The notes below the pieces were generated by a model. The model had not been told where the DNA came from, did not search any database, and saw nothing but the letters and a program-made list of their open reading frames with translations. From Gammaproteobacteria bacterium (GTDB lineage Bacteria > Pseudomonadota > Gammaproteobacteria > QNFE01), in NCBI GenBank assembly GCA_003645455.1, contig QNFE01000003.1, forward strand, positions 1,442 through 65,441: a DNA stretch of 64,000 nucleotides, written 5' to 3'. The translations under genes were made by a program, and so were the position numbers. Below are positions 612-60,243 of the stretch, piece by piece. Each line of letters opens with the position of its first letter. Within the stretch, counting starts at the first letter, position 1.

Positions 612-1277
612 TTGAGAGTAAAAAACATTATGAATAAAATTATTGACAACAAAAAACTATATATATTTCTGTGTGCTTTTGTTATTGGCACTTTTACAGG
701 CTGTGGTGGTGGCATAGAAGAGGATGCAGAGGGTGGCGATGAAGAGATAACTTTTTATGAAGAGGAGGGATATTCTTGTTTTGATAAAGAATCAGAAGAA
801 TATGATTCCTTTTTAGATGAAATGGAGTTAGATCGTGACTATATAGACTCTTTGCCTGATGGCGAACAAGAGATAGAATACGATGAAGACGATGAAGAGG
901 CTTATAGCCCTATTCAAGATAAAGCAGATCTTGGAGCCTCTATATGTTTGCTTGAGTCTGATGAGCTTGAAGTAGAAATTGAAGAAGAAGAGGAATCAGA
1001 GGAGCTTGAAGTTACAGCGGAGAGTATTGCAGAATCAGGTAAGTATATCCTATTATCACAAAAATTCTTCTTGTCCAATAGGTTACAGAGTTCTTTAAAT
1101 GCTGTTAATCGTGCCATTAAATTAAATCCATATTCAGCATTAGGTTATCAAATTCGCGGTAGCATTTTCTATAAAGCTCGTTTTTTATCTAAGGCTAAAA
1201 AAGCATGGGAGAAAGCCATTGAGTTGGACCCAACCTTATATAGAGTCCGAATGCATCTGGAGACAATTTATTTTTAA
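612..1277 (+). CDS. Acidic lipoprotein with C-terminal TPR repeat
   Basis: Lipobox FTGC after hydrophobic N-terminus; long D/E-rich region; TPR-like C-terminus (AWEKAIELDP). Confidence 0.45.
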   Translation: MRVKNIMNKIIDNKKLYIFLCAFVIGTFTGCGGGIEEDAEGGDEEITFYEEEGYSCFDKESEEYDSFLDEMELDRDYIDSLPDGEQEIEYDEDDEEAYSPIQDKADLGASICLLESDELEVEIEEEEESEELEVTAESIAESGKYILLSQKFFLSNRLQSSLNAVNRAIKLNPYSALGYQIRGSIFYKARFLSKAKKAWEKAIELDPTLYRVRMHLETIYF

Positions 1278-1302
1278 ACTAATGATAAAAAATAACAACA
1301 AT

Positions 1303-2511
1303 ATGATAAAAACTTTATTTGTCGCTATGTTAGTGCTATTTTCAGGTAGTGCCAATTCTACTATGTATAATTTTCAGAGTTCACAAGAATTGGCACAAAA
1401 TCGTTATAATCGTCACCTGGAATCACAACTGTCATCAAGAATTAAAAGGATTGTCGGACACAATGGTTTTGTTATCCATGTTTTTGCGACATTAAACCCC
1501 ACTCAGAAGAAAAAAATAACAAAGAATAAGAAGAATTATAAGAATAAAATATTGTTAATAAACGATCAAATCGCACATTTGTCTGCCAACAACAGTAATT
1601 CTTCTCAACACAACAACAGATCGTCATCAAAATTACCAGGAATGCCTGACAAAAGATTTAATGTTGCTACTGCACAAAATCAGAATCGAGGTGTTGCCGG
1701 ATTTTTATTAGACGGATTATTTGAAAAAAATCCAATAAATGAGCCATTGTTCCATGATTTGATCGTCATGGATACAAAGCAACTACTCAACCAAAATAGA
1801 AATAGATCACCTGGTGTCCCAGATAATGCAAATATACCCCATATAAATAATTCACCACAGGTTGGGTTAAAATCTTTACCAGGATTTGAGATGCATGCAG
1901 ACATCCCAATGACTTCTAAAAAAAACAATCCACCGAACGATAAAATTAAAGCCTTAAAAAACATAAAAAGAATGTATCAACAAAAAAGTAAACTAAAGCC
2001 TAAAACCAAAAACCGTCTTCATAGAAATTATTATGGCGTAAAATCTGTCAAGATTGATGTTTTGCTTGACGAAAGTGTAAGCCTTGAAAAAGAAGAATTT
2101 ATCTCACACCTTATTATTGAGCGAGCAAAACTTTTAAAAAATCCTGCTAATTCTTTGAGCATTGTTCGTGCCCGTTTTGACTATAAAACATGGTCAAATG
2201 GTTATATTCCTCCTCCTATTATTTTTTCACAACCACCAATAATAAGAAAGCCCATAGTTATTCAGCAACAACAATCGCCCCCCCCACAGATTATAAAAAT
2301 AGAGCCTGCAAAACAAGAAATAGTTAAAAAAATATATCCAGAAATACAATTGCCAGAATTTATAAAATATTGGTGGATAGGGTTGTTGATTATATTATTT
2401 ATATGGTTTGTAAGTCACAGATTAAACATCAGAAGATCTGATGAGCAACATCGTAGAATGCAAGAAATGATGATGTTGCAAAACAAATCCCAGGTAAGGT
2501 ATATTAATTGA
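1303..2511 (+). CDS. FliF/YscJ-like bitopic membrane protein (N-terminal TM, periplasmic ring-building-motif-like modules, C-terminal TM, short cytoplasmic tail)
   Basis: Signal/TM MIKTLFVAMLVLFSGS; motifs LESQLSSRIKRIVGHNGFVIHV and SVKIDVLLDESVSLEKEEFISHLII resemble FliF/YscJ family signatures; TM YWWIGLLIILFIWFV; paralogous to 2524..4893. Confidence 0.4.
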   Translation: MIKTLFVAMLVLFSGSANSTMYNFQSSQELAQNRYNRHLESQLSSRIKRIVGHNGFVIHVFATLNPTQKKKITKNKKNYKNKILLINDQIAHLSANNSNSSQHNNRSSSKLPGMPDKRFNVATAQNQNRGVAGFLLDGLFEKNPINEPLFHDLIVMDTKQLLNQNRNRSPGVPDNANIPHINNSPQVGLKSLPGFEMHADIPMTSKKNNPPNDKIKALKNIKRMYQQKSKLKPKTKNRLHRNYYGVKSVKIDVLLDESVSLEKEEFISHLIIERAKLLKNPANSLSIVRARFDYKTWSNGYIPPPIIFSQPPIIRKPIVIQQQQSPPPQIIKIEPAKQEIVKKIYPEIQLPEFIKYWWIGLLIILFIWFVSHRLNIRRSDEQHRRMQEMMMLQNKSQVRYIN

Positions 2512-2523
2512 ATCACAGTTATT

Positions 2524-4893
2524 ATGATAAAACAAACACCACAATATAGATTAAAATATTATACAGTAATATTTTTGTGCTTGTTGTGGCAAAACACTGA
2601 TGCTGAGATTATAGTTCAAAAATATGGTGTGGATGCCAACGTAAATCAAAGATTTAATTCCAACATGGAAAGACGCCTTTCAATACCCATTAAAAAACTT
2701 CTTGGTAATAATAGTTTTATCGTTCAAGTTGATGCCAATCTTAAAAATGTGCAAAAAACAAAAGTCATAAATTTGCCATCAAAACCTGTTAATAACAATA
2801 CCTACCATCCTGCATTAGATTTATACATAAACGATCAATTTGCTCCCAAAATAAACCAAAAATATTCTCCGGTGTATCCTGGTATAAACTCCATGGATTC
2901 AATAAATAAAACAGAATCTAATCACATATACGATTCTTTACAGATGGGATCAGAACCAGATAATGTCATTGACTTCCCTAACCCTAATATTGTTGATAAT
3001 AATGGTAGCTTTTCACAAAATATGCTACTACCTGGCATACAAATAACAAATTCAAGTAAGTATAATTTATCGCCACAACAAAACAGGCAATTGCAAACCT
3101 ATCAAAAATATCAAAAAGCTCAAGCATTGCAAAGAATCAATAAACTTCGTCAAAAAACAAAAAAAAACTATAAATTAATAGGAACTTCAATTAAAGTAGA
3201 TAGATTAAAAATAAATGTTCTTATTGACGAAAATGTTGATTTTGAAAAAGAAGAAATTATTAGAAACCTAATCATAACACAAACGAATTTATCTTTTGAT
3301 AGAGGTGATTCCTTGGAATTAATTAGAACCACTTTCCCAAATGCTATTGATAATAATAAGCATAAAAACCAACAAAATGCCAATGCGAGATATAGGCAAA
3401 ATTATTTACAACCTACGATTGCGCCTGTGCCCAGTCAACAATACCCCCCACAACCTATTGTGTTGCCTCAACCCCAACCACAACCACAACCACAGATTCA
3501 AATCGATAGACAAAATTATCAACCTTCTTTGTTTGACTACTCAGGCATAACCTCTTTACAATTTTTTGACATTAAAAATTTTTTAATAGATTATTGGTGG
3601 TCTGGAATACTTTTATTAGTTTTTATCATATATTATTTTAACAAAAAATCATCCCAAAGAAGATTTAATAACGATGATTATTTTTATAATTTTGCTAACT
3701 CGCAGGCGACTCCTGATCTACTAATACATCGTAGTCAACCTCAAATTATAGCCGAGCCTCAAACTAAAATTATAAATCCGCAACAAAAACCACCTTATCA
3801 GAAAACCTCATCACAGAGAGAAAGATCCTTAGTTAAGGAATATCATGGTAATAGCAATGGTCATGATCGTAAAACTACCGAGGCCTTGAATAAATTAAAA
3901 GAATCCGTTTATAAAGATGAGTTGGTTAATTTGATTATATCACAACCTGCAAATTTTACGGAGCAAATCCAAGAATGGATAAATTCAAATTCCAAACAGG
4001 CAAAAAAATACATCATAACTGCTTATGCTTTATTAGGTGAAGGGATTTTTAACGGTGTGTTTAACAAATTGAGTGACGATGATAAGGCTTCTCTTAATAA
4101 TGCTGTGTTAGAGTATAAAAAAAGCACCAGCAATTCTGATTTTCAAAGGCATTCAAGAGAGCTTTATAGGTTATTTAGTTGTAACATTATGTCAAGACCA
4201 AACAATGCCTCTGGTTTATCAATGCCGTTTGCATTTTTAGAAAAAATGAATAATTCTCATATAAAGTATTTAATAGAAAATGAAAATTACAAAATAAAAG
4301 CCTTAGTTTTGTCTCAATTAAATAGTAAAAAAGCCGCCCAAATTATTAGCGACTATGAAGACCGAGAACGCAGCTTAATTGCAATAGAAATTAGTAATTT
4401 TAGAGAATTGCCAATTGCAACTTTCAGACAAATAGCTACACGCCTAGCAAAACAATCCAAAAAAATCCCAAGTTTTAATAATGTGTTGGTTGATGGAGTT
4501 GAATTATTAGTGAATATGTTAGGACAATTAGATGAGGGTCGTGAAAAAATGATTCTAAATTCTATTAAAAGTTACGATCCAAATTTATTTTTCAAAATTA
4601 AGCAACACTACTTAAATTTTAATGATCTGACAAAGCTACCAAATATTGCATTAAAAAACTTAATAGGTGCCGTAGATAGAAGAATGCTTGCCACGGCATT
4701 AAGTGGTGCTGATGGAGATATAGTTCAAAGATTTTTACAGGTTTTAAGTGAAACATCTGCCAATGCACTTAAATATACTTTAAAACAAATTGGCAATCCT
4801 AGCTCCGATGAAACATTAAAAGCGAAACAATTGATTTCATCACAAGCACGCCACATGTTAAAATCAGGGCTATTGAAAAATCCTGTCGTATGA
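2524..4893 (+). CDS. FliF-like periplasmic/TM region fused to a cytoplasmic FliG/MgtE_N-like domain
   Basis: N-terminal part paralogous to 1303..2511 (IKVDRLKINVLIDENVDFEKEEIIRNLII); Pro/Gln-rich linker; TM YWWSGILLLVFIIYYF; C-terminal region aligns by eye with FliG middle/C domains (ALVLSQLNSKKAAQIISDYEDRERSLIAIEI...; LPNIALKNLIGAVDRRMLATALSGADGDIVQRFLQVLSE). Confidence 0.45.
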   Translation: MIKQTPQYRLKYYTVIFLCLLWQNTDAEIIVQKYGVDANVNQRFNSNMERRLSIPIKKLLGNNSFIVQVDANLKNVQKTKVINLPSKPVNNNTYHPALDLYINDQFAPKINQKYSPVYPGINSMDSINKTESNHIYDSLQMGSEPDNVIDFPNPNIVDNNGSFSQNMLLPGIQITNSSKYNLSPQQNRQLQTYQKYQKAQALQRINKLRQKTKKNYKLIGTSIKVDRLKINVLIDENVDFEKEEIIRNLIITQTNLSFDRGDSLELIRTTFPNAIDNNKHKNQQNANARYRQNYLQPTIAPVPSQQYPPQPIVLPQPQPQPQPQIQIDRQNYQPSLFDYSGITSLQFFDIKNFLIDYWWSGILLLVFIIYYFNKKSSQRRFNNDDYFYNFANSQATPDLLIHRSQPQIIAEPQTKIINPQQKPPYQKTSSQRERSLVKEYHGNSNGHDRKTTEALNKLKESVYKDELVNLIISQPANFTEQIQEWINSNSKQAKKYIITAYALLGEGIFNGVFNKLSDDDKASLNNAVLEYKKSTSNSDFQRHSRELYRLFSCNIMSRPNNASGLSMPFAFLEKMNNSHIKYLIENENYKIKALVLSQLNSKKAAQIISDYEDRERSLIAIEISNFRELPIATFRQIATRLAKQSKKIPSFNNVLVDGVELLVNMLGQLDEGREKMILNSIKSYDPNLFFKIKQHYLNFNDLTKLPNIALKNLIGAVDRRMLATALSGADGDIVQRFLQVLSETSANALKYTLKQIGNPSSDETLKAKQLISSQARHMLKSGLLKNPVV

Positions 4894-6386
4894 AAATTTT
4901 TATATTGATATTGTTGCTATTTTCAAATAGTGCAATAGCATGGAAAAATTTTGAAAACATAAATGTCCCAAAAATAATAAAACCAGACGCTAAACAAAGA
5001 TTATTGTTAAAAAAGGGCATAACAGCAATACAAAAAGATAATCTCAAAGAAGCTTTAAATAATCTTGTGCCCATAGCAGATATGGGTTATCTCAAAGCAT
5101 CAGTGAGTTTAGCAAAATACCTATATAAATCAAAGCATATGAAGCTATTCAAGTTATCCCATAAATATCATTATATAGCAGCAAAACACAATATGTGGCA
5201 AAGTCAAGTGGTTATATCATATGCTTACCTACAAGGAGACTACACAAAAAAAAATTTTTTAATGGCAAGGTATTGGTTGGATAAGGCAGCTTATAATGGA
5301 GGTGGCTCTCAGATAGATTCTTTGTATGAGAAATTAAATCAAATCTCTTATAAGCAGGCTAAAATACTGATAGAACAAAAAAAATACAATGCGGCTGAGA
5401 AAATTTTAAAACCCATGGCAAAGATAAGATACAAAAACAGCAAATCTTTGTTAAATAGCATCCAAAAAATTGGCAAAAATGGAGAGAAAAAACAAAAAAT
5501 AGTAGAAAAATTGAATACAAATAATGGTAAAAAAAAGCAAGCAGCAACACAATATCATCTTGCCATTACATATCTAAAAGACAAAAATATTTCAAAAGAA
5601 AAACAACAACGGGCATTAAAATTATTAAAAAAATCAGGTGCTCCTGGAAACTCTTCTGCTCAGTTTAAGTTAGGGCTTATAATGTTAAAAGGTGATCTCA
5701 TAAAACAAGACATAAAACAAGGAATTCACTGGTTAAGAATGAGTGCCGAACAAGAAAATAAAGATGCTCAGTATACTCTGGGAGTGTATTATATATCAGG
5801 AACTAAAATTCCAAAAGATGATTATGAAGCTCACAGGTGGTTCAAACGTGCATCTAATAATGGTCATATAAAAGCCACCCATAATCTTGGTATAACATAT
5901 CTATACGGTATAGGGGTATCATCTGACAAGCCAAAAGCCATGTATTGGCTCAACAAAGCTAAAAAAAATGGCAATTATAAATCGTCCCAAATATTAAAAA
6001 ATCAAAATAATAATAGGGCATCATACAAGGAAAATAAAAAATATAAAAATCATAAAACACATGACAAAAAAGAAATTTACGAAGCAGTTAAGGGTCATAA
6101 TTGGTTTTCAAGCATAAAGGGTAGCGATAAGTATAGCCTGCAATTGTTAGTAGCTTTTAATTTCGATACTTTGTTAAAATTCTTAAAACAAAATAATATA
6201 AAATCGTCATATTTTCATTATAGCCGTAAAACAGATCAGTCCCAAAAACAACATATTTTAATCTATGGTATTTTTGATGATTATGAGAGCGCTTTTGCTT
6301 ATGCTAAAAAAATATCAAATGATTTTAAAAAATTTAAACCATGGGTTAGGAAAATATCTGCAATTGAGGATGAGACAAAATTATAA
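4890..6386 (+). CDS. Secreted Sel1-repeat protein with C-terminal SPOR (peptidoglycan-binding) domain
   Basis: Signal peptide; Sel1 repeats (AQYTLGVYYISG..., ATHNLGITYLYG...); C-terminal YSLQLLVAFNFDTLLKFLKQ...ILIYGIFDDYESAFAYAKK resembles SPOR; ATGA overlap with upstream gene. Confidence 0.55.
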   Translation: MKIFILILLLFSNSAIAWKNFENINVPKIIKPDAKQRLLLKKGITAIQKDNLKEALNNLVPIADMGYLKASVSLAKYLYKSKHMKLFKLSHKYHYIAAKHNMWQSQVVISYAYLQGDYTKKNFLMARYWLDKAAYNGGGSQIDSLYEKLNQISYKQAKILIEQKKYNAAEKILKPMAKIRYKNSKSLLNSIQKIGKNGEKKQKIVEKLNTNNGKKKQAATQYHLAITYLKDKNISKEKQQRALKLLKKSGAPGNSSAQFKLGLIMLKGDLIKQDIKQGIHWLRMSAEQENKDAQYTLGVYYISGTKIPKDDYEAHRWFKRASNNGHIKATHNLGITYLYGIGVSSDKPKAMYWLNKAKKNGNYKSSQILKNQNNNRASYKENKKYKNHKTHDKKEIYEAVKGHNWFSSIKGSDKYSLQLLVAFNFDTLLKFLKQNNIKSSYFHYSRKTDQSQKQHILIYGIFDDYESAFAYAKKISNDFKKFKPWVRKISAIEDETKL

Positions 6387-9355: not shown

Positions 9356-9550
9356 ATGCAAACAATAACATTAAACATAAACGATGATTATATGCAAAAT
9401 TTTAAAACCATCTTAAAAGCTTTGCCAAAAAACAAAATCACAATAGCAAAAAATGAAGACGAATTATTTTTATCAACCTTAAAAAATAATCACAAAAAAG
9501 ATTATGTCAATAAAAATGAAATTTTTGAAGCACTATCGGTTAAATCTTAA
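9356..9550 (+). CDS. Putative antitoxin (MQTIxLxIxD family), partner of downstream RelE/ParE toxin
   Basis: 64 aa; stop overlaps the toxin start; N-terminus shared with 10280..10549 and 11454..11744. Confidence 0.4.
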   Translation: MQTITLNINDDYMQNFKTILKALPKNKITIAKNEDELFLSTLKNNHKKDYVNKNEIFEALSVKS

Positions 9551-9816
9551 TGCAGATAAGATATGAAAAAAAGTTATTAAAAGACATCAAAAAACTAAAC
9601 AACGACAAATTAAAACAAAAACTAAAAACTATTTTTGAATTATTTGAAACTCAAAACACAATGGAGACAATTCAAAATATAAAAAAATTAAAATCACACG
9701 AGAACTATTATAGATTAAAAATATCAGATTACAGACTTGGTTTTCACTATCAAAATAACATTATCACAATAATCCGCATACTTCACCGCAAAGACATTTA
9801 TAAAAAATTTCCATAA
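9550..9816 (+). CDS. RelE/ParE-family type II toxin
   Basis: 88 aa; C-terminal YRLKISDYRLGFHYQNNIITIIRILHRKDIY matches RelE/ParE signature. Confidence 0.6.
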   Translation: MQIRYEKKLLKDIKKLNNDKLKQKLKTIFELFETQNTMETIQNIKKLKSHENYYRLKISDYRLGFHYQNNIITIIRILHRKDIYKKFP

Positions 9817-10085
9817 TAAAGACAAAAAGTAATTTTTATCTTGGCAGGTTATGATATTGGCGGTTTGTTTTGGTTAAATATGCGAATTATATCAATACAA
9901 TCATCGGTTTGGTTTATTCTGTAAATTATAGTATAACCTTTATATATCATATTTCTGACATTTTGATTATTGAAATATATTTACTTTCTATGTTTGTATG
10001 GAAAGTTTGGTATGTCATCAATCGCCTCATCTAATTTATCTTTAAAATTTTTACAAGCAGATAAATTATCATAAGCAATATAATA

Positions 10086-10247
10086 TGAGACCCTTGCATA
10101 AATCAAGCACAATTTATAAAACACATAAAATGCACCTTTTCATAGCAAAAATTCGTCAAAGGGAATTACCATATTCCTCATTTTTGCTATAAAAATGCAC
10201 TATTTTCTGCATTCTTCTAAACAGCACTTGATTTATGCAAAGGTCTC
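10086..10247. repeat. MITE family 2 copy (TIR GAGACCTTTGCATAA...TTATGCAAAGGTCTC)
   Basis: Inverted termini visible; related copies at 16916-17101, 27135-27231, 44235-44331, 45640-45796, fragment 36061-36077. Confidence 0.65.
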
Positions 10248-10279
10248 ATTCTAAAATTTGATAGAGATTTTCCTCGTGC

Positions 10280-10549
10280 CTACGAGACCGTCTGATTTTC
10301 ATATTTGGCATTTAATTTATGCAAAAAATCTTTCATATTTTTGTCGTATTGTGCTTTTGAGTGCATAACAACTTTACCGCTATCAATATCTTTTAAGTCT
10401 TGATGAAGTTGTTTTTGTCGTGCATAAAAATATGGGTCTGCTTTTAGATTATCATCTCTTTCTATTTTAATATAATCGCCATATTTTGCCACAATAGTCA
10501 GAAAATCTTGCATAAAATTATCTTTGACTTGAAGTTTTAAAGTTTGCAT
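10280..10549 (-). CDS. Antitoxin-like protein (MQTLKLQVKD..., paralog of 9356..9550); cognate toxin apparently lost
   Basis: N-terminal similarity to the two other MQTI antitoxin-like ORFs; downstream is a MITE plus a roughly 33-codon ParE-like remnant. Confidence 0.35.
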   Translation of the reverse strand: MQTLKLQVKDNFMQDFLTIVAKYGDYIKIERDDNLKADPYFYARQKQLHQDLKDIDSGKVVMHSKAQYDKNMKDFLHKLNAKYENQTVS

Positions 10550-10649
10550 AAAATAATAGTTTTTAAAAAATTAAACCACAATAACACAAAAAATTAAATC
10601 ATTCAAAAATCTCGTGTTATAATACCAATTTTTTAATTTTAAAAATATA

Positions 10650-10862
10650 ATGTTATCAATAACCATAAACAACCAAACAATTGAAAATTTTTATAAAAAA
10701 GATTGTCAAAATAATCAAAATAAATTCATTGATAATTTAATAGGTTATATTGAAAATTATAAAATAAAACAAAGCATAACAACAGGTTTGCATCAAGCAC
10801 AGCTCATAAAAAATGGCAAATTAGAAAAAATAGATTTAAAACAAGCCTTAAGGAAGCTCTAA
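10650..10862 (+). CDS. Hypothetical small protein, possible antitoxin for downstream RelE-family toxin
   Basis: 70 aa ORF upstream of toxin gene; no recognisable motif. Confidence 0.25.
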   Translation: MLSITINNQTIENFYKKDCQNNQNKFIDNLIGYIENYKIKQSITTGLHQAQLIKNGKLEKIDLKQALRKL

Positions 10863-11017
10863 ATAACTACGATAATCATTAAAACAGCCACTATGCACTT
10901 GACTTGCAATTTTTTAAAAAAGCCCACAGAACCTTGCTATAATGGCCTTTAAAAAAAATCACAATTAAATAAATTGACTATTTTTCTAATCACCGCAGTT
11001 ATTCAGAACTTCCTTAA

Positions 11018-11347
11018 ATGCCATATAAAATAATACCAACCCCTGAATTTATAAAAAATGTAAAAAATCTACGCAAAAAATTCAAAAACATAAAAACAGA
11101 TATTGAAAACCTGAGTTTGAAGCTTGAAAACAACCCAACAATTGGCACTAAATTATCAACAAACACTTACAAAATAAGATTAAAAAACAGCGATATTAAT
11201 AAAGGAAAAAGCGGAGGATATAGAGTCATAACATACATTGTCAATCAGCAAAACGAAATAATTTTATTAACAATTTATGCCAAGTCAAACCAAGAAATAA
11301 TAACGGACTCAGAAATTGAAAAGTTGATAGACAATACCAACAACTAA
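11018..11347 (+). CDS. RelE/ParE (HigB-like) family type II toxin
   Basis: KIRLKNSDINKGKSGGYRVITYIVNQQNEIILLTIYAKS matches the KSGGYRVIYY RelE/HigB signature. Confidence 0.55.
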   Translation: MPYKIIPTPEFIKNVKNLRKKFKNIKTDIENLSLKLENNPTIGTKLSTNTYKIRLKNSDINKGKSGGYRVITYIVNQQNEIILLTIYAKSNQEIITDSEIEKLIDNTNN

Positions 11348-11453
11348 CCCTTAAAACCAGCTGATTTTAAAAAACAAGATATTACCTTGTTTTAAATTCC
11401 CCTTTTAAATTATTTTTTGCTATAATATCAATTTTTAAAAAAAACATAACAAA

Positions 11454-11744
11454 ATGCAAACAATACAATTACAAATTGAAGATAAAAATATTGAAACATT
11501 TTTAACTATTTTAAATAATCTAAAAACTAATTTAATAAAAAATCTTACAATATCAAATGCAACAACTGAAAACTTAACCAAAAAATATCAAAACTCACCA
11601 CAATTCACAAAAGATAAAATTTATTTTCAATCTTGCTTAGATGACATTAACAACAACAAATCAAAACTATTAAAAGAAAACGAATATCAAACCCAAATAA
11701 CTGATTTTGAAGAAAAATTAAAATCAAAATATGCAGATAATTAA
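11454..11744 (+). CDS. Antitoxin-like protein (MQTIQLQIED..., paralog)
   Basis: Shared N-terminus and shared promoter sequence with 9356..9550. Confidence 0.35.
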   Translation: MQTIQLQIEDKNIETFLTILNNLKTNLIKNLTISNATTENLTKKYQNSPQFTKDKIYFQSCLDDINNNKSKLLKENEYQTQITDFEEKLKSKYADN

Positions 11745-11998
11745 AAGCACTCAATATCTAAAAAAACTGCAAATTATCATGGAATATATTGCAAAAGATA
11801 ATTTATCAAGAGCATTAAAATTTAGAAAAAGTTTAGATGATGAAATTGATAACAACATAATAAATATGCCATTCAAATATCGCAAATCAATATGAGAGAT
11901 TTAATATTCAAAGGTTATGTAATTCCATATAAAATTGAGACTAACAACAATCGCATAATTATAATAGGTATAAATAAATACAAACTAAATTTATAATT
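11734..11998 (+). pseudogene. ParE-like toxin gene, frameshifted
   Basis: ATG at 11734 overlaps the antitoxin stop. Frame 1 gives MQIIKSTQYLKKLQIIMEYIAKDNLSRALKFRKSLDDEIDNNIINMPFKYRKSI* and the +1 frame continues RDLIFKGYVIPYKIETNNNRIIIIGINKYK*, which is a ParE C-terminal signature. Confidence 0.4.
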
Positions 11999-12109
11999 TA
12001 TAACTATGAAAACAATTAAAACAACAACAGGATTAGTGCAAACAATGAGAGAAATCCGCGACAAATATAGTTGCGAGATTTTGCCTATGTCGCTAACCTA
12101 AAAAAATTC

Positions 12110-12261
12110 CCGTCATTGCGAGGCGGACGGAAAAATGGTGTAATATCAAGCACTTAAACCGCCGTGGCAATCTCTTGAGGGGATAACGGAAACCCTGCGA
12201 GATAACCACGGCAGTTGATTACACCAGTTCCTCTTTTTTCTCCGTCTGCCTCGTTATGACG
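12110..12261. repeat. MITE family 1 copy
   Basis: Near-identical to 9063..9215. Confidence 0.7.
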
Positions 12262-12408
12262 GATTCTTTTTTTGTTTGGCAAAAATATAAAAATTAGTTA
12301 TTTCGCAATTCCACATAGTGGAAACAAGCTCTAAAAACAGAACAAAAAAAACAACAACAAAAACCAAAAAAGTTTATAATAGATGATTTTTTAAAACCGG
12401 AGCAATTT

Positions 12409-13322
12409 ATGAAAAAAGTAATTTTTATTTTAAGTTTATTTTTAACTAACCTATTGTTCGCCTATCAGTATGACCCTTTAAAAGCAGTTATGGCATATGA
12501 CGCACAAAAAAAAGGTGATTATAAAAAAGCAAGCGTATTGTGGAAGCAAAGTTGTGATGAAGGTAATGCAAATGGTTGTTTTAATCTTGGGTCATGTATG
12601 ACAATGGCAAAGGTGTTAGACAAGATAAAGTAAAAGCTATCATGCTCTACAAACAAGCCTGTGATGGAAGAGATGCCATGGGTTGCTTTAATCTTGGGTT
12701 GATGTATAGTAAGGGACAAATTTTAAAGCAAAATTTAGTAAAAAGTAAATTTTATGTTGGCAAGGCATGCGATTTGGGGCATCAACGAGGGTGTGAAGCC
12801 TACAAAAAACTCAACGAGCAAGGAATAAGTTCTGCCCCTATAAACGGTAGTGGCGACAACATAACAGATAATTTTAAAAATGCGATGACTTATTATAAAG
12901 CTGAAAATTTTTCACAAGCTTTGATTTATTTTGAAAAATCTTGCAATGATGGTAAGTTTATATCTTGTAATAATGCAGGTGGCATGTATCGGCTGGGGGA
13001 AGGCACAACTAAAAATCATCAATCTGCTTTGAATTTATTTGAAAAGGCTTGTAATGGCAAGACTTATATAGGTTGTTATAATTTGGCAGAGATGAACCTT
13101 TTAGGACAAGAAGTAAAAATAAATAAAAACACTAGGGGTGAGGGATTTAAACTTCTAATATATTCTTGTGATACTGGTAATCATGGTTTGTCTTGTTATA
13201 AGTTAGGAACATTGTCAGAGAATGCAAAAGATGAAAAAATGCAAGGTTTAAGCCAGTTTTATTTTAAAAAATCTTGTAAATTAGGACATAAAGAATCCTG
13301 CGGTAAAATATCAACAGAGTGA
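12409..13322 (+). pseudogene. Secreted Sel1/HCP-like cysteine-rich repeat protein with -1 frameshift near 12590
   Basis: ORFs 12409..12633 and 12594..13322 are the same gene split in GGG at 12588-12590: GCFNLG | VMYDNGKGVRQD is the expected repeat reading. Confidence 0.5.
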
Positions 13323-13337
13323 TTATTAGGTTTTTAA

Positions 13338-13556
13338 TTATGTAGATATGCTTTGCAAAATTTCAATATCTTTGCGGATTAGGTTGTTGATAGTTTTATT
13401 TAATGAAAAATTTGCCTTGCTATTTTTGTTTTTGTTTATAAAAAATTCTTTGTTTTCTTTGTCAAGGTAAATCGGAATATCTAATTCATTTTCAGGGCGA
13501 TAAAATTTACCTTGTTCGGCATCAGTAAAATCATATTCTTTTTTCATTTTTTGCAC
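13338..13556 (-). CDS. brnA: BrnA antitoxin
   Basis: KKEYDFTDAEQGKFYRP... BrnA-like; overlaps brnT. Confidence 0.5.
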   Translation of the reverse strand: MQKMKKEYDFTDAEQGKFYRPENELDIPIYLDKENKEFFINKNKNSKANFSLNKTINNLIRKDIEILQSIST

Positions 13557-13840
13557 CTTTGATAGTAATGGTTTTTTTCATTTTTGGTTGCGAGCCTTGC
13601 ACTTATAATACGAACGATTTCAAATTTATCAAAACCTCTGTATGTATGTGCCATAACCACAATTAAATTATTTTTTGTTTTTCCTAATATAATCCATCTG
13701 TCTTCATTTTGAGAGTTTTCATTGTCCTGCTTATTTAATGAAAAAGGATCAGAAAATACAGACAAAGCATCCTCAAAAGAGATTTTGTGTTTTTTTAAAT
13801 TACTTGTTGCTTTTTTATTGTCCCATTCAAATTTCATCAT
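13544..13840 (-). CDS. brnT: BrnT ribonuclease toxin
   Basis: MMKFEWDNKKATSNLKKHKISFEDALSVFSDP matches the BrnT N-terminal signature. Confidence 0.65.
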   Translation of the reverse strand: MMKFEWDNKKATSNLKKHKISFEDALSVFSDPFSLNKQDNENSQNEDRWIILGKTKNNLIVVMAHTYRGFDKFEIVRIISARLATKNEKNHYYQRCKK

Positions 13841-14000
13841 AAAACTGCAAACAAGAAAAATTGACTACTATACCTTAATACTTTAATTTTTGCAAATATC
13901 TTTATCTGACCGAGAAAAAATATTATTGCGATTTTACAACTTTTAATTTTTGTTTTTGCTATTATGGTTATTTTACATTATAAAACATTAGGTAAAAATT

Positions 14001-14261
14001 ATGCAAACCGCTAAACTTTTTTTAAATGGCAATAGTCAAGCCGTTCGTTTTCCTAAATCATATAACTTTAAAACAGACAAAGTGTATTTAAAAAAAGTGC
14101 CACAGGGTGTGCTTTTGATGCCAGCTGAAAACAATAATGATGATAATATATGGGATAAATGGCAGAAAAATTTAGACGAGTTTAGTTCTGATTTAAAAAT
14201 TAAAAGAGAGCAGAATAAAACACAACAAAACAGAGCGAAAATAGATGAGTTATTTGCTTGA
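14001..14261 (+). CDS. vapB: VapB antitoxin (AbrB/SpoVT-like)
   Basis: NGNSQAVRFPKSYNF... motif; overlaps vapC. Confidence 0.6.
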   Translation: MQTAKLFLNGNSQAVRFPKSYNFKTDKVYLKKVPQGVLLMPAENNNDDNIWDKWQKNLDEFSSDLKIKREQNKTQQNRAKIDELFA

Positions 14262-14649
14262 TACAAATATCTGCATTTATATTATCAACAATAGTTATAA
14301 AGAGGTTGTAGATAAGTTTAAAACAATTGCAATAGGCGATATTCATATCTCATCAATTACTGTCTCGGAACTTTTTTATGGAGTGCATAAAAGTAAAAAT
14401 AAAGATGATAATTTAATCAAATTAGACAACTTTCTTAATCCTTTTGAAATTCTTGTTTATGACAAAAAAGCATCACAAACTTATGGTTCTCTTCGTGCAA
14501 AATTAGAAAAAACAGGCAATGTTATAGGGTCGCTTGATATGTTAATAGCATCATCTGCCATCAGCCAAAATTTTACTTTGGTAACAAACAATGAAAAAGA
14601 GTTTAATCGTATTGGCAATTTAAAAATTGAAAATTGGATTGAAAAATAA
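14245..14649 (+). CDS. vapC: VapC PIN-domain toxin
   Basis: MSYLLDTNICIYIIN... PIN signature; 134 aa. Confidence 0.75.
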   Translation: MSYLLDTNICIYIINNSYKEVVDKFKTIAIGDIHISSITVSELFYGVHKSKNKDDNLIKLDNFLNPFEILVYDKKASQTYGSLRAKLEKTGNVIGSLDMLIASSAISQNFTLVTNNEKEFNRIGNLKIENWIEK

Positions 14650-14652
14650 AAT

Positions 14653-22258: not shown

Positions 22259-22888
22259 TTGCTAATAATCCAAAACGAACACCTAATAAATACAAAGGCA
22301 AAAGGGGGTGCAAAACAATTATTACACACAAAACTTTACAATAAAACATCATTTTATTGTGATCGTCCATATAAACAGCATAAAAAATCACCTGATAGAA
22401 AGTGTTATGAAAAAGACTGCTCGCTGAATATCAACAAAGGCAAGGAATTACAAAAAAACACAATAGATTCGGAACATATTGTTCCTCGGTCAACATTAGG
22501 AAAAAAATCACCTGACTACAAACTATCTCAAAGTGACTTACACAATCTTCGCCCTACTGTTGCCATATTAAACAATCAAAGACAAAATTATCCATTTATT
22601 GATAATATAAATAGCCCACACATAGAAATTAGCAAATGTGATTTAAAGATTACCCATAAAGCAAAACTGGTATCGCCACCAAACAGCAAAAAAGGAACAA
22701 TAGCTCGCACCTATTTATATATGAATGACACCTATTCCTTGCAATTAAGTGAACAAGAATTAGAGCAATATTTAAGATGGCACAAACTTTATCCGCCAAA
22801 TAACTGGGAAATAAAACGCAATATTTTAATTCAAAAATATCAAGGCAATACTAACCCTTGGATTGATATTTATGAGACAAAAAAATGA
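22259..22888 (+). CDS. Endonuclease I (EndA/Vvn family) domain, separated from its in-frame signal-peptide segment (22076..22171) by TAG at 22172
   Basis: AKQLLHTKLYNKTSFYCDRPY...SIARTYLYM... matches periplasmic endonuclease I; upstream in-frame MKIFNKIATVPVAVILIGGVAVYATSNKNGGG* ends right after a G9 tract. Confidence 0.55.
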   Translation: MLIIQNEHLINTKAKGGAKQLLHTKLYNKTSFYCDRPYKQHKKSPDRKCYEKDCSLNINKGKELQKNTIDSEHIVPRSTLGKKSPDYKLSQSDLHNLRPTVAILNNQRQNYPFIDNINSPHIEISKCDLKITHKAKLVSPPNSKKGTIARTYLYMNDTYSLQLSEQELEQYLRWHKLYPPNNWEIKRNILIQKYQGNTNPWIDIYETKK

Positions 22889-23340
22889 AAAAATATCTCA
22901 TAACTACAATGTTATTTTTTGTGGCAAGTTCTGTTTATTCTTTTAATGATAAATCGTCAAACCATAAAAATCCTGCAAATTTGGCAGAATTAACAAAATT
23001 ATTTAATAATGGATTAAATGAATATGATAAGGGCAATTATACCAAAGCTGCTGATTTATGGCAAAGAGCCTGTGATGGTGGGGTATCTGGTGCTTGTTAT
23101 AATCTCGCAGTCCTGTATACCAACGGCACAGGGGTTAAAAAAAACCCAAAAATAGCTTTTGAATTATATCAAAAATCTTGCAACAATCATTATGCTGATG
23201 CTTGTTTTAATCTGGGAATTATGCATAATCAAAAACACGGCATTTATAAAGACAAAACCAAAGCCAAAACATACTTTAAAAAAGCCTGTGATTTGGGGCA
23301 TTCTTTTAGTTGTCAAGGCTTAAAATCTATCAAGGATTAA
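22885..23340 (+). CDS. Secreted Sel1/HCP-like cysteine-containing repeat protein
   Basis: Signal peptide; ACYNLAVLY, ACFNLGIMH repeats. Confidence 0.6.
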   Translation: MKKYLITTMLFFVASSVYSFNDKSSNHKNPANLAELTKLFNNGLNEYDKGNYTKAADLWQRACDGGVSGACYNLAVLYTNGTGVKKNPKIAFELYQKSCNNHYADACFNLGIMHNQKHGIYKDKTKAKTYFKKACDLGHSFSCQGLKSIKD

Positions 23341-44234: not shown

Positions 44235-44331
44235 GAGACCTTTGCATAATTCAAGTGCTGTTTAGAATAATAAGAAAATAGTGCATATTTTATTGTTGTT
44301 ATAAATTGTGCTTGAATTATGCAAAGGTCTC
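44235..44331. repeat. MITE family 2 copy
   Basis: Near-identical to the internal part of 45640..45796. Confidence 0.65.
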
Positions 44332-44361
44332 GTTACATTTTTAAATTTAAATAATTATGCT

Positions 44362-45630
44362 ATGCTCAAAAATAATGTAGTGCTATTTTCCGCTTTATTT
44401 GTTGTGTTTTTTATATCGTCCTGCTCGGCTGATTTAAAAAAAGATGCAGAAATTAAACAGAACACCGAACAACAAAATGTAGCTAAAAAAACAGCCGTAA
44501 CCGAACAACAAAATGTAGCTAAAAAAACAGCCGTAACCGAACAACAAAATGTAGCTAAAAAAACAGCCGTAACCGAACAACAAAATGTAGCTAAAAAAAC
44601 AGCCACAGAAGATAAATTGATAGAATCGGAGTGGCCAATAGAAGCAAATATAGACACAAAAGAAACAACAAATCAAAAAGTTTTAGTAAAAAATAATGAA
44701 ACAGAAAGCGATAAAATATCTTCAATTAAATACTATAAAAAATTAAATAATAAATATCGAAAAATCGAAAAATATACTATAGAAGTGGATGCGCCATTAA
44801 TAAAAAACAATGAATTTCCTGTGTCCCTACCTTATTACAACGATCTTTTGACTGGTAAAAATAAACTCAAAGCAATATTGATGATACCGATGAAGCTTAC
44901 CATCACTAATTCAGCCCAACGGCGTCTGTTTACTATTTTTACTCAAAAATCAAAATCAACACTTAAAATTGGCACAAAATTAATAAAAGTAAAGCAGGTT
45001 TTTATAGAAAAAAATCAAGAGAGAGAAAATGATTTAGCTGTTTTTGTGGGAAACAACAAACAGATATATCATACAAAAAAATCAAAATCAAAATATATTA
45101 TAAAATTTTTTCTGCCTGTAAATCACAAGCATTTTAATGACGGTTTTATTAAAGTTTCAATAGCATCAACCAATGGCATAGAATTAACAAAAATTTGTGA
45201 AAAACATATTACATGTATAAAACCTGCCTTTATTAAAATATTGCCAAGATATGTTCATTACAATTTTGATGTGGCAAATACTTCGGGCTTTAATAGGAAC
45301 AAACCAAAACAAAAATTTACCATTAGTAGTTCTAATGTAAATTTATTAATAAAAGAAAACGGTAAGAAAAAAACAACTATATATTATCATAAGTTACCTG
45401 CATCATTTACAGTTAAATACGATGCAAAAAAAAGTAAATTTAATCGCAGTTTGATAAGAAAGTCTTTTATTGTAATAAAAAATAATTTGGATATATATCC
45501 CATAATACCCTATATGTCATCTGATAAGTATTCTATTGATGATGTGATAACAATAACTAATTTGACATCAAAACAAGAGTTGACCACACAGACAATTAAT
45601 AGAGTCAAAAAAATGTCTACAAAACATTAA
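44362..45630 (+). CDS. Lipoprotein, paralog 1 of a tandem three-gene family (DIYPIIPYMSSD C-terminal motif), with 36-nt in-frame tandem repeat
   Basis: Lipobox ISSC; (TAVTEQQNVAKK)x4; shared domain with 45810..46703 and 46768..47850. Confidence 0.5.
   Translation: MLKNNVVLFSALFVVFFISSCSADLKKDAEIKQNTEQQNVAKKTAVTEQQNVAKKTAVTEQQNVAKKTAVTEQQNVAKKTATEDKLIESEWPIEANIDTKETTNQKVLVKNNETESDKISSIKYYKKLNNKYRKIEKYTIEVDAPLIKNNEFPVSLPYYNDLLTGKNKLKAILMIPMKLTITNSAQRRLFTIFTQKSKSTLKIGTKLIKVKQVFIEKNQERENDLAVFVGNNKQIYHTKKSKSKYIIKFFLPVNHKHFNDGFIKVSIASTNGIELTKICEKHITCIKPAFIKILPRYVHYNFDVANTSGFNRNKPKQKFTISSSNVNLLIKENGKKKTTIYYHKLPASFTVKYDAKKSKFNRSLIRKSFIVIKNNLDIYPIIPYMSSDKYSIDDVITITNLTSKQELTTQTINRVKKMSTKH
44467..44606 (+). 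repeat. 36-nt perfect tandem repeat x3.9 inside coding sequence (VNTR)
   Basis: GAACAACAAAATGTAGCTAAAAAAACAGCCGTAACC repeated head to tail. Confidence 0.85.
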
Positions 45631-45639
45631 AACCATTTT

Positions 45640-45796
45640 GAGACCTTTGCATAATTCAAGTGCGATTTAAATAATAAGAAAATAGTGCATATTTTATTAA
45701 AAAAGAGGAAAATAGCTTGCTATTTGACAAGTTTTTTGGTAAAATAGGTGCATTTTATTGTTGTTATAAATTGTGCTTGAATTATGCAAAGGTCTC
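45640..45796. repeat. MITE family 2 copy
   Basis: TIR GAGACCTTTGCATAATTCAAGTGC...GCTTGAATTATGCAAAGGTCTC. Confidence 0.65.
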
Positions 45797-45809
45797 ACTT
45801 TATGCTATT

Positions 45810-46703
45810 ATGCTTACAAACTATTTAAAAATTGCCATTATGTTGCCACTATTTATGCAAGTTATTGTAGCTTGCTCTTCTGCTGAAACATATGTCATAG
45901 AATTACAGGCTCCACTTATAGATAACAACGAATTTCCAGTTGCTATTGATTATTATAACGACTTATTGGATAACAAAAATAAATTAAAAGCTTACTTGTT
46001 GGTGCCAGTTAAACTTACAATTACTGGCTCACAAAAAAGAAGGTTGTTTACAATTTATACCATGAACTCCAATTCTAAATTAAAATTTGGCACAGATTTA
46101 TTAAAAATTAACCAAGTGCATCTAACTAAAAAACAAATAAAAGTAGCCAATTTACAAACTTTTATCGGTCCAGATAAAAATATTTACCATACAAAAAAAT
46201 CAGATACAACTAATATTATAAAATTCAAAATACCTATCACCCACAAACACTTCAATGGCGGATCTGTGAAGATTCTTGTCGGATCTAGCAACGGCACAGA
46301 GCTCTCAAACATATGTGAACTAAATTCAAAATGTATGAAAGATGCATCTTTTACTATTAAACCTAGATACATTAAGTACGGTTTTAAGTTAAATGGAGGC
46401 TCTAACTACATACATTATGCGCCAACACACACAAATAAAGTTTATAAATCAAATGTGGACCTACATATCTTTAAAAACAACATTAAAAGAAATACATTGC
46501 TCCGCGAAGATTTACCAGCTTCATTTTCTGTGGGATACAATAAAAACAATCAAAAATATACCATAGATATTCGTCCTATAATTCCTTATATGTCATCTGA
46601 TGCATATCACAGTAATGATAAAATTATAAGCACATACTCAGTATCTAAACCGATATTAGATTACAAAAACATCAAAAAAGCAGAAAAATTATTAGATAAT
46701 TAA
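45810..46703 (+). CDS. Lipoprotein, paralog 2
   Basis: Lipobox VACS; NNEFPVAIDYYNDLL...KLKAYLLVPVKLTITGSQKRRLFTIYT shared block. Confidence 0.5.
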   Translation: MLTNYLKIAIMLPLFMQVIVACSSAETYVIELQAPLIDNNEFPVAIDYYNDLLDNKNKLKAYLLVPVKLTITGSQKRRLFTIYTMNSNSKLKFGTDLLKINQVHLTKKQIKVANLQTFIGPDKNIYHTKKSDTTNIIKFKIPITHKHFNGGSVKILVGSSNGTELSNICELNSKCMKDASFTIKPRYIKYGFKLNGGSNYIHYAPTHTNKVYKSNVDLHIFKNNIKRNTLLREDLPASFSVGYNKNNQKYTIDIRPIIPYMSSDAYHSNDKIISTYSVSKPILDYKNIKKAEKLLDN

Positions 46704-46767
46704 ATAAATATGTTTTTTAATATTTTTATTATGGTATAGTAGGACACTCTTTTCTTAGGAATTTATT

Positions 46768-47850
46768 ATGTTTAAAAATTATTTAAAGTATCTGTTATTA
46801 TTATCTTTTCTTGCTGTATTCACAGTCGGTTGCTCATCCAATCAAGAAGAAGAATCTATTGATGATGAGACTGTTGTGGAGGGTGCTGTTGAAAAACCAG
46901 ACAACAAAAAACAGTCTAAAACAACAAAACGAGCAAATGAAAATAGTAATAATGTCACAAGTATAAAAGGCAAAAAGGCATTGCCAGAAAAATATACTCT
47001 AGAAGTTGTAGCACCAAAAATAGACAACAATGTATTTCCAGTTCCAGTTAAATATTTTGATGATTTGTTGACTCATAATGGCAAACTAAAAGCAGTTTTG
47101 ATGGTACCAATGAAACTTACTATTGAAAACACTCGTGAGCGTCGCCTGTTGACAATCTATACTCAAAATGTTAATTCACAAGTTCCATATGGTGCTGATT
47201 TAAGATCCATAAAACAACTTAATTTATCAAAAACGGAAAAGCATAGAGCGAATCTCTTAACTTTTGTAGGGCCAAATAAAAAAATATTTCGCACCGCAAG
47301 CTCTGCTACAACTCAGGTTGTAAATTTTAACTTACCAATAACTCACCAACATTTTCACGAAGGTCATGTCAAGGTGCTTGTAGGCTCATCAAATGGGGTG
47401 CAATTAACTGAAATTTGTGAGGTTAATAATACAGAATGTCTGACGAGTGCAACTTTTAAAGTCGTGCCAAGAGCCGTTCAATATTCCTTGGTGGCCACGG
47501 ATAAATCATATTTTTTCAACCCCAGTCCTAATCAAAAATTTAAAATATTGAAATCAAATGTGGATGTGCAAGTAAATGAAAATAATGTGCAAAAGGCGAT
47601 TGTTTCTCGTAAAAAATTGCCTGCTGAATTTCTTGTAGCTTATGTTACTCAAAAATTTAGACCTCATTTGGTGAATAGTGCAATGCCAAAATCAAGAGTG
47701 AATAACATGGACATATATCCTGTTATTTATTATATGTCATCAAATGCTTATAAGCCATCTGATGTAATTATTTCAACTCACTCTTCAACCCGTCCTGATA
47801 TTACAGTCCGTAATGCTGCAAGAGCGGTTAAAATTTTACAAAAAAAATAG
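46768..47850 (+). CDS. Lipoprotein, paralog 3
   Basis: Lipobox TVGCS; same conserved blocks; C-terminal DIYPVIYYMSSNAY. Confidence 0.5.
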   Translation: MFKNYLKYLLLLSFLAVFTVGCSSNQEEESIDDETVVEGAVEKPDNKKQSKTTKRANENSNNVTSIKGKKALPEKYTLEVVAPKIDNNVFPVPVKYFDDLLTHNGKLKAVLMVPMKLTIENTRERRLLTIYTQNVNSQVPYGADLRSIKQLNLSKTEKHRANLLTFVGPNKKIFRTASSATTQVVNFNLPITHQHFHEGHVKVLVGSSNGVQLTEICEVNNTECLTSATFKVVPRAVQYSLVATDKSYFFNPSPNQKFKILKSNVDVQVNENNVQKAIVSRKKLPAEFLVAYVTQKFRPHLVNSAMPKSRVNNMDIYPVIYYMSSNAYKPSDVIISTHSSTRPDITVRNAARAVKILQKK

Positions 47851-59991: not shown

Positions 59992-60243
59992 TATTGTCAT
60001 TCCCCCCTATTTTGTAAAAAATTACACAATAACACAAAGTATGTTGATAAACAAAATTATCTTTTAAGGTTTTATGCTGTTATTCAAAGCAGGTAAAATA
60101 TTTGGCAAAGATTGGTCAGATATTAGGCTCAAATGAATCATGTCTTTGTGTTTAATTTTTTCAATCGACAGATATCAAGAACTGTAGCTATTTTTATAAT
60201 TGATAGGCCGTTTTTATACATTGGTTTGGACTATATTATTCTC

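Follow-up and report, generated by a model that had tools for sequence, protein, structure and literature searches.

The locus described here is a group of four closely spaced genes (630-6386, + strand) in a 64-kb stretch of DNA from a gammaproteobacterium (GenBank assembly GCA_003645455.1, contig QNFE01000003.1); the whole stretch, which is AT-rich (about 31% G+C), is called the window below. The four genes encode a TPR lipoprotein, two paralogous membrane proteins, open reading frame 1 (ORF1) and ORF2 (locus tag DRQ51_00980), and a periplasmic Sel1-repeat protein, and ORF2 joins a periplasmic domain related to the flagellar ring protein FliF to a cytoplasmic FliG in a single polypeptide. On the + strand the four genes stand between a SpoU/TrmL-type methylase gene and moaA, which is followed by a methyltransferase gene, ftsB and ispD. 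The gene positions agreed with those of an earlier note, made from the sequence alone, which had placed ORF1 at 1303-2511, ORF2 at 2524-4893, the Sel1 gene at 4890-6386 and a TPR gene upstream; the 4-nt overlap of the Sel1 gene with ORF2 is present, and both peptide motifs quoted in that note were found in ORF1. The start of the TPR gene was placed at 630 by the gene callers, with an alternative TTG at 612 in the ORF listing. The features of the locus are as follows.

142/160-606, + strand: SpoU/TrmL-type methylase gene.
630..1277, + strand: TPR lipoprotein with an acidic linker (Pfam TPR_2, E 2.6e-07; lipobox-like ...FTGC GGG).
1303..2511, + strand: ORF1, 402 amino acids; signal-peptide-like N-terminus, split RBM3/collar-like domain, Pro-rich linker, transmembrane helix and tail, without FliG.
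2524..4893, + strand: ORF2, 789 amino acids; FliF(RBM3)-FliG fusion.
2605..3339, + strand: predicted periplasmic RBM3/collar-like domain of ORF2, residues 28-93 and 182-272 (AlphaFold2 model confidence, Foldseek).
3025-3039: LPG motif of ORF2, residues 168-172; copies in ORF1 at residues 110-114 and 191-195.
3571..3669, + strand: predicted transmembrane helix of ORF2, residues about 350-382 (Kyte-Doolittle peak at residues 353-371; model helix at 358-382; FliF alignment extends into the second transmembrane helix of FliF, TM2).
3862..4203, + strand: FliG_N-like helical domain of ORF2, residues about 447-560 (Foldseek against full-length FliG).
4204..4527, + strand: FliG middle domain of ORF2 (PF14841, E 3.3e-11, residues 579-648; alignment to 3hjl).
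4528..4890, + strand: FliG C-terminal domain of ORF2 (PF01706, E 7.1e-17, residues 680-782; gapless against Aquifex FliG).
4890..6386, + strand: periplasmic Sel1-repeat protein, 498 amino acids (Sel1, E 3.8e-33); its start lies 4 nt inside the end of ORF2.
6132-6353, + strand: SPOR-like peptidoglycan-binding domain of the Sel1 protein, residues about 415-488.

The cytoplasmic half of ORF2, which the earlier note had likened to the middle and C-terminal domains of FliG or to MgtE_N, passed the Pfam gathering scores of both FliG_M (43.7 bits against a cut-off of 25) and FliG_C (62.1 bits against a cut-off of 23.3), and residues 572-783 aligned with residues 113-324 of Aquifex aeolicus FliG (3hjl) over 212 residues without a gap (E 2.5e-17). 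An AlphaFold2 model of ORF2, built from an alignment of 42 family sequences (mean predicted local distance difference test score, pLDDT, of 73.7, with folded parts above 90), matched full-length FliG in Foldseek over 322-327 columns (3hjl, E 2.9e-12; 8umx_B), confirming the FliG fold at the level of predicted structure. The only Pfam FliG_N match in ORF2 falls out of register, on the M domain; the Foldseek columns span the full length of FliG. By profile, alignment and model, the cytoplasmic part of ORF2 was shown to hold the M and C domains of FliG, a resemblance that by these scores is well past chance level; with the N domain predicted from the model, it probably corresponds to a complete FliG. 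The MgtE_N identity was rejected, its match (E 0.036, 15 bits against a cut-off of 25.9) sitting beneath that of FliG_M and comparing with E 7e-17 for FliG_C.

On these comparisons ORF2 is a divergent and not an ordinary FliG. Its score against the TIGR00207 equivalog model was 97.6 bits, below the cut-off of 226.7. The EHPQ motif, part of the FliM-binding surface of FliG, reads E587-N-Y-K590 in ORF2, and across the fusion family only the E is conserved. The charged residues K264, R281, D288, D289 and R297 of the torque helix of E. coli FliG correspond in ORF2 to S727, T744, Y751, T752 and S760. The MFxF-type hinge motif is kept as Y-L-N-F-N-D. The contacts described between MotA and FliG are R90/D288-D289 and E98/R281 (PMC12505986).

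The relationship of the periplasmic halves to FliF emerged when family members were combined. Taken as a single sequence, ORF2 matched YscJ_FliF_C below the cut-off (E 0.036, 15 bits against 23.8), ORF1 weakly matched the NCBIfam model spore_III_AG (E 0.02), and ORF1 gave no match to PDB sequences at E values up to 10. Once 19 N-terminal halves had been combined into a profile headed by ORF1, significant matches appeared to residues 233-479 of Salmonella FliF (E 1.3e-05) and to Vibrio FliF (E 1.3e-04), and the alignment to FliF 233-479 spans RBM3, the disordered insert of the collar tip and TM2. The first motif quoted in the earlier note (xLExRLxxxIxxxLG..FI.V.A.L) was aligned on 'FANDVESRIQRRIEAIL..GNVHAQVTAQL' of FliF, in the alpha1-beta1 region, and the second (L.V.L.LD....EQE.F.RNL...K..L...RGD.L.I.RT.F) on 'LSVAVVVN...ADQMKQIEDLTREAMGFSDKRGDTLNVVNSPF', in the region of the ...RGDxL... 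strand.

The AlphaFold2 models of both proteins contain a block of a helix and strands followed by a strands-helix-strand block, with a long disordered insert between them. In ORF1 pLDDT was about 90-98 at residues 30-75 and 240-295; in ORF2 it exceeded 90 at residues 30-85 and 215-270 and was below 50 at residues 94-181. The top Foldseek match of ORF1 was RBM3 of FliF (6sd1_A; root-mean-square deviation 2.4 A over 54 columns, probability 0.99, E 0.03), and the best matches of ORF2 other than FliG were the FliF RBM3/collar structure 6sd1_A (E 4.5e-3, probability 1.00) and the Vibrio S-ring 8z4d_1, so that the RBM fold anticipated from the sequence was recovered in the models. Family profile and predicted structure together have established homology between the periplasmic domain of ORF2 and the RBM3/collar (S-ring) part of FliF, which forms the ring. 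ORF1 was shown by sequence comparison to be a paralogue of the N-terminal half of ORF2 (BLASTP E 1e-13, 28% identity over 267 residues) with the ring domain and the membrane helix only and without FliG. The likeness to FliF/YscJ ring-building motifs proposed in the earlier note thus stands for RBM3/collar and fails for RBM1/RBM2, since PF01514, which covers the latter, was not matched by ORF1 or ORF2 at E values up to 1 in Pfam. ORF2 bore out the proposed fusion of an MS-ring-type domain with its C-ring partner: an RBM3/collar-like domain, one transmembrane helix and a cytoplasmic FliG follow one another in it.

A transmembrane-periplasm-transmembrane topology had been proposed for both proteins, and of this the single downstream helix was retained. 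The hydrophobic segments at the N-termini are short, fall below the Kyte-Doolittle threshold for a transmembrane helix and are followed by A-x-A-type or small-residue sites (NTDA|E and SANS|T), and are probably cleavable signal peptides, not first transmembrane helices. Read in this way, ORF1 and ORF2 would be type I membrane proteins with the ring domain outside, one helix in the membrane and a tail or FliG inside; ORF1 has one predicted transmembrane helix at residues about 351-372, followed by a cytoplasmic tail of 30 residues. The disordered insert of ORF2 (residues 94-181) carries the family motif L-P-G-(L/I/M)-(P/Q), the sole strongly conserved element of this insert in 42 family members. 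Across these members L169 never varies, and conservation of P170 and G171 reaches 90% or more. In the window lineage each protein carries the motif twice. G261 and D262, the near-invariant G-D of the last strand region, are likewise at least 90% conserved in the family alignment.

The association of ORF1 and ORF2 with a Sel1+SPOR protein and a TPR lipoprotein, suggested earlier from gene order, was corroborated in related genomes, where the orthologues share the operon of the fusion gene. Full-length orthologues of the Sel1 protein (30-33% identity, E 1e-71 to 1e-82) were found in three metagenome loci (L015, L017 and L018), in each as the first gene of the operon. The window TPR protein matched the TPR genes 5' of the fusion gene in all fifteen related loci described below (L005-L019; tblastn E 1e-9 to 1e-15); in each related locus a TPR gene directly precedes the fusion gene, and in the window ORF1 is inserted between the two. 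Since their orthologues are co-operonic with the fusion gene in the relatives, the TPR and Sel1/SPOR proteins are taken as genuine parts of the system. The SPOR domain (PF05036) claimed for the Sel1 protein is significant in the full-length orthologue of L018 (31.5 bits, E 2.3e-07); the window protein itself scored 16.8 bits against a cut-off of 21.

Gly at position +2 directs lipoproteins to the outer membrane under the E. coli sorting rule. The lipobox Cys of the TPR protein is followed by Gly at this position, which points to the outer membrane for this lipoprotein. Membership of the Sel1 protein in MotX was rejected (E 1.3e-11, but 44 against 330 bits), the likeness of its C-terminus to DamX was judged generic (E 0.004, 16 against 256 bits), and membership of the TPR protein in PilW was rejected. 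Two more small Sel1-repeat proteins are encoded in the window at 12594-13322 (E 5.5e-25) and 22885-23340 (E 5.6e-23), positionally unrelated to the four genes, and the genome therefore seems rich in Sel1 proteins.

The distribution of the fusion was determined by searching 1.84 billion representatives of 50%-identity clusters exhaustively with HMMER; 2983 of them matched at E<1e-3, and 44 of these reached E<1e-30. Among the 150 representatives listed, about 100 are 560-790 amino acids long with FliG at the C-terminus and score above canonical FliG of 330 amino acids; on these lengths and scores, the fused architecture is shared by at least about a hundred such clusters. Over their whole length 42 members could be aligned, the window fusion throughout with 41 others. 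Where family members are named, they are annotated as 'hypothetical', 'FliG' or 'flagellar motor switch protein FliG'. No paper on the fusion family, on VF_A0183-0185 of Aliivibrio fischeri or on their cluster was found in the literature searched, and a paper on MotAB evolution does not mention the family, which appears to be undescribed.

Genomic context was compared in ten loci from a scan of species-representative genomes (L005-L014), whose hosts are Thalassolituus, Bacterioplanoides, Marinicellulosiphila, Bermanella, two metagenome-assembled genomes (MAGs) and three Aliivibrio species, and in five loci from metagenomes that were scanned with the five sequences closest to that of the window (L015-L019). 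The gene order in L005-L014 is X-TPR-fusion-MotA-MotB, where X is a gene for a protein of 350-380 amino acids that was not matched in L010; in the three complete metagenome loci (L015, L017 and L018) it is Sel1/SPOR-motA-motB-X-TPR-fusion. The motA-motB pair stands next to the fusion gene in 15 of 15 loci and X is present in 14 of them. The family MotB has a plug and an OmpA domain, and the NCBIfam models that fit the stators best are MotP/PomA and MotD/MotS, which assigns the stators of the related clusters to the flagellar type. X has no family assignment and its N-terminal part is weakly FlgO-like (E 0.0012); it ends in ...GYRF(Q), as outer-membrane beta-barrels do (L009 8187-9320; L018 6227-7345), and we infer from its sequence that X is an outer-membrane barrel-like protein. 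More distant MotA matches from MAGs of Nitrospinae, Bacteroidetes and Rickettsiales belong to free-standing motAB pairs without a fusion gene, so that a MotA similarity of about 50% is no marker of the fusion system.

One of these clusters lies in the genome of A. fischeri ES114 (L014 7545-12294; chromosome II, about 205.2-210.0 kb), where motA2/motB2 are directly 3' of the fusion gene and TPR and X are also present. By position the fusion, TPR and X genes would be VF_A0185, VF_A0184 and VF_A0183. VF_A0186/0187 are the published motA2/motB2 (PMC10804989), which are dispensable for swimming in soft agar and are not regulated by FlrA (PMC3948606). A. fischeri also has canonical fliF and fliG genes (VF_1852/1851).

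In the window, Pfam scans of about 45 ORFs together with tblastn revealed no flagellar, type III secretion or MotA/ExbB-family gene, in line with the earlier statement that flagellar and type III secretion genes are absent nearby; the neighbours among these ORFs are housekeeping genes, toxin-antitoxin pairs and CRISPR-Cas genes. The only close relative of the window fusion is P0002 (52% identity), on a 26.6-kb contig (L001) with the same gene order, SpoU-TPR-ORF1-fusion-Sel1/SPOR-moaA. No tblastn match to motA, motB or X was found in the 64-kb window or in L001, and no flagellar or injectisome gene was found in L001 or beyond the end of the window, where the following 10 kb hold a type III-A CRISPR-Cas locus without motA or motB. 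A counterpart of ORF1 is found in none of the other loci (L005-L019), indicating that ORF1 is a gain of the window lineage. The description of the genes as an orphan module is thus correct in that the window locus is without flagellar genes, and falls short in that a wider cluster, found in other marine bacteria, ordinarily carries MotA and MotB as well, and the locus is a cut-down version of it.

The loss of the stator genes from the locus is accompanied by changes in the torque helix. Most of about 50 other members have K or R at the position equivalent to R281, the exceptions being E in P0019 and P0024 and T in P0013, and the window and L001 have T there; the position equivalent to D289 is mostly E or D among about 50 members and T in the window. 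The closest clade linked to MotAB (P0003-P0005) has also lost the acidic pair and has kept its stator genes. Between the window and L001 the folded domains are 52-71% identical and the linkers 24-30%, with FliG_M (71%) and FliG_C (65%) as the most conserved parts. In ORF1 and its orthologue in L001 the folded parts are 62-65% identical, the linkers 30% and the 30-residue tail 53%. Since identity is high in the folded domains and drops in the linkers, the sequences indicate that the genes are not decaying.

On this evidence we lean towards the reading that the genes at 630-6386 derive by reduction from a conserved, uncharacterised envelope module built of flagellar motor parts, and would form a FliF/FliG-derived, tethered inner-membrane ring without direct stator drive. 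ORF1 and ORF2 would co-assemble through their RBM3-like domains into a ring in the inner membrane that exposes FliG to the cytoplasm; ring assembly has been described for engineered FliF-FliG fusions (PMC10941966, PMC11481574). The Sel1-SPOR protein would tie this ring to peptidoglycan and the TPR lipoprotein would tie it to the outer membrane, and the TPR or Sel1 repeats may dock on the disordered loop, with its conserved LPG stretch serving as a short linear motif. In the relatives dedicated MotAB stators would turn the ring as a small rotor, independently of the flagellum, whereas in the window lineage it would be a static or differently driven scaffold spanning the envelope. With the stator genes and X gone from the locus and all five charges replaced, torque by the canonical MotA-FliG charge contacts has most likely been lost, and the ring of the window lineage is probably stator-independent. 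A broader proposal, which we put forward tentatively and hold to be less probable than its opposite, is that the fusion family is a stand-alone, flagellum-independent rotary machine, consisting of an RBM3/FliG ring, its own MotAB and a TPR/Sel1-SPOR/barrel coupling to wall and outer membrane, of which the window would represent a stator-less conversion with two paralogues.

Several observations weigh against a ring without stator drive. The single-sequence evidence for FliF in ORF1 and ORF2 is weak (E 0.02-0.04), and ring formation by their RBM3-like domains is a prediction from homology. The absence of motAB refers to the 64 kb plus about 13 kb of this genome that were inspected. The P0003-P0005 clade keeps its stators without the acidic pair, so that loss of the charges is in itself no proof of uncoupling from a stator, and the high conservation of FliG_M and FliG_C suggests that FliG still binds a conserved partner, possibly a stator encoded elsewhere. 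These points lead to the most serious alternative, which we consider possible but doubtful, namely that the proteins still form a working mini-rotor driven by MotAB or another 5:2 motor encoded beyond the sequenced contig. A dedicated motAB in all 15 relatives outside the window lineage, the retained hinge, the motAB of the P0003 clade and the frequency of free-standing motAB pairs of this type in genomes are in its favour, as is the strong conservation of FliG. It is opposed by the absence of motA and motB from the window, the relative's contig and the 10 kb past the window end, and by the replacement of all five torque-helix charges, including the position equivalent to R281, where most other members have K or R. 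A search with the MotA of the clade also returned no named entry from the same MAG among the best 120 relatives, a weak negative since most entries are nameless.

Decay was considered for the same loss of genes: after motAB and X had gone, the remaining genes would be non-functional and drifting, as the loss of 3 of the 6 genes of the ancestral operon and of the stator-contact charges might suggest. We regard this as improbable, since two lineages sharing only about 42-60% identity both keep the four ORFs intact, the genes are tightly spaced with one 4-nt overlap, and identity differs between folded domains and linkers as given above, the ORF1 tail being conserved as well. Still less probable is that the proteins are the ordinary flagellar FliF and FliG of the host, fused and divergent, with the other flagellar genes elsewhere. 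The homology of the FliF and FliG domains agrees with it and some sources label members of the family 'flagellar motor switch protein FliG', but RBM1/RBM2 are missing, the TIGR00207 score is less than half of its cut-off, the FliM-binding EHPQ motif is conserved nowhere in the family and the neighbours are housekeeping genes; moreover, A. fischeri has VF_1852/1851 besides the fusion, and the motA2B2 linked to its cluster are dispensable for swimming. A spurious resemblance caused by Pro/Asn/Gln-rich, low-complexity composition, a reservation attached to the original proposal, can be set aside as refuted. Long stretches of this kind do occur in ORF2 (residues 94-181, 273-349 and 383-446) and flooded a word-indexed search, which returned just the protein itself and one relative both for ORF2 and for the 42-sequence profile; these are linkers between conserved domains, and the matches fall outside them, in non-repetitive segments of high pLDDT that include the 212 residues aligned to FliG.

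If the reduced-module reading of the window and the rotary proposal for the family are true, the family would have put the flagellar rotor-stator pair to a second use apart from motility and would supply a function for the long-unexplained motA2B2 of A. fischeri. The fusion of RBM3 with a whole FliG, accompanied by dedicated stators and by no export apparatus, rod or switch proteins, suggests that the rotor-stator pair can be an independent module, which bears on the evolution of the flagellar motor and on other uses of ion-driven rotation in the cell envelope. The cluster also offers a testable partner for motA2B2 in the genetically tractable A. fischeri. The window lineage would be an informative exception, in which stators and contact charges are lost while FliG remains strongly constrained, and could reveal what FliG does without a push from MotA. 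Flagellar rotor proteins would have been redeployed in a non-flagellar envelope module, and the interest lies more in the broader family than in its stator-less offshoot alone.

Other features of the window were recorded. A 37-38-nt repeat (GTCTTAATCCCCTTTATGTCGGGTCTCGGTCTCTGAC) that recurs about 6-8 times at a spacing of 70-75 nt makes up a CRISPR array at 60581-61187 and 62611-63255 of the window; the array adjoins cas1, and cas2 and the type III-A csm/cas10 genes lie just past the window end. Between ispD and ispF, which are usually adjacent, small toxin-antitoxin genes (ParE, RelE, BrnT, PIN) are densely packed at 9356-14650. Three consecutive ORFs of 440, 328 and 360 amino acids (44308-47850) and an ORF of 417 amino acids beside the CRISPR array (58747-60000) have no Pfam match at E 1e-4 to 1e-5. 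Scans of the window for promoters and terminators gave no excess over shuffles, and Rfam and tRNA scans gave no matches.

Compared with flagellar FliF and FliG, the window fusion is alike in that its periplasmic domain resembles FliF 233-479 and S-ring structures and its cytoplasmic part resembles full-length FliG. It differs in lacking RBM1/RBM2, in having a probable signal peptide in place of the first transmembrane helix, in being a single polypeptide, in lacking EHPQ and the torque-helix charges, and in having no export apparatus, rod or FliM/N genes nearby. The Sel1 protein shares with MotX of the Vibrio T-ring and with the SPOR protein DamX a generic Sel1-repeat/SPOR similarity below the family cut-offs. 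The sporulation ring protein SpoIIIAG is similar in having a single RBM3-like module with an inserted beta-region and in forming a large ring outside the flagellum; the relationship between RBM3 of FliF and SpoIIIAG has been described (PMC4768692). SpoIIIAG differs from the window proteins in giving no significant direct match (ORF1 against spore_III_AG, E 0.02), in lacking FliG and in its other organisms and context.

The nearest published concept is the FliF-FliG fusion of the Chlamydiaceae (CT719 type; Bergeron 2016, PMC4768692), a natural, shortened bitopic protein in which a FliF-like part is fused to a FliG-like cytoplasmic part in a non-flagellar context. As described, that protein has about 330 amino acids, with an RBM2-like segment, one further RBM and a FliG_M-like region only, and is without an RBM3/SpoIIIAG-like domain, which sets it apart from the window fusion with 789 amino acids, RBM3 only and the N, M and C domains of FliG. 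The engineered FliF-FliG fusions of Salmonella and Vibrio (PDB 8z4d) are covalent fusions that assemble into rings, but are laboratory constructs containing full-length FliF inside a complete flagellum. Close natural systems are the clusters of the VF_A0183-VF_A0187 type in A. fischeri, Bermanella, Thalassolituus, Bacterioplanoides and Marinicellulosiphila, which differ from the window locus in having motA-motB and X and in having neither ORF1 nor a Sel1/SPOR gene within 10 kb, and share with it the fusion family itself and a TPR lipoprotein gene directly upstream.

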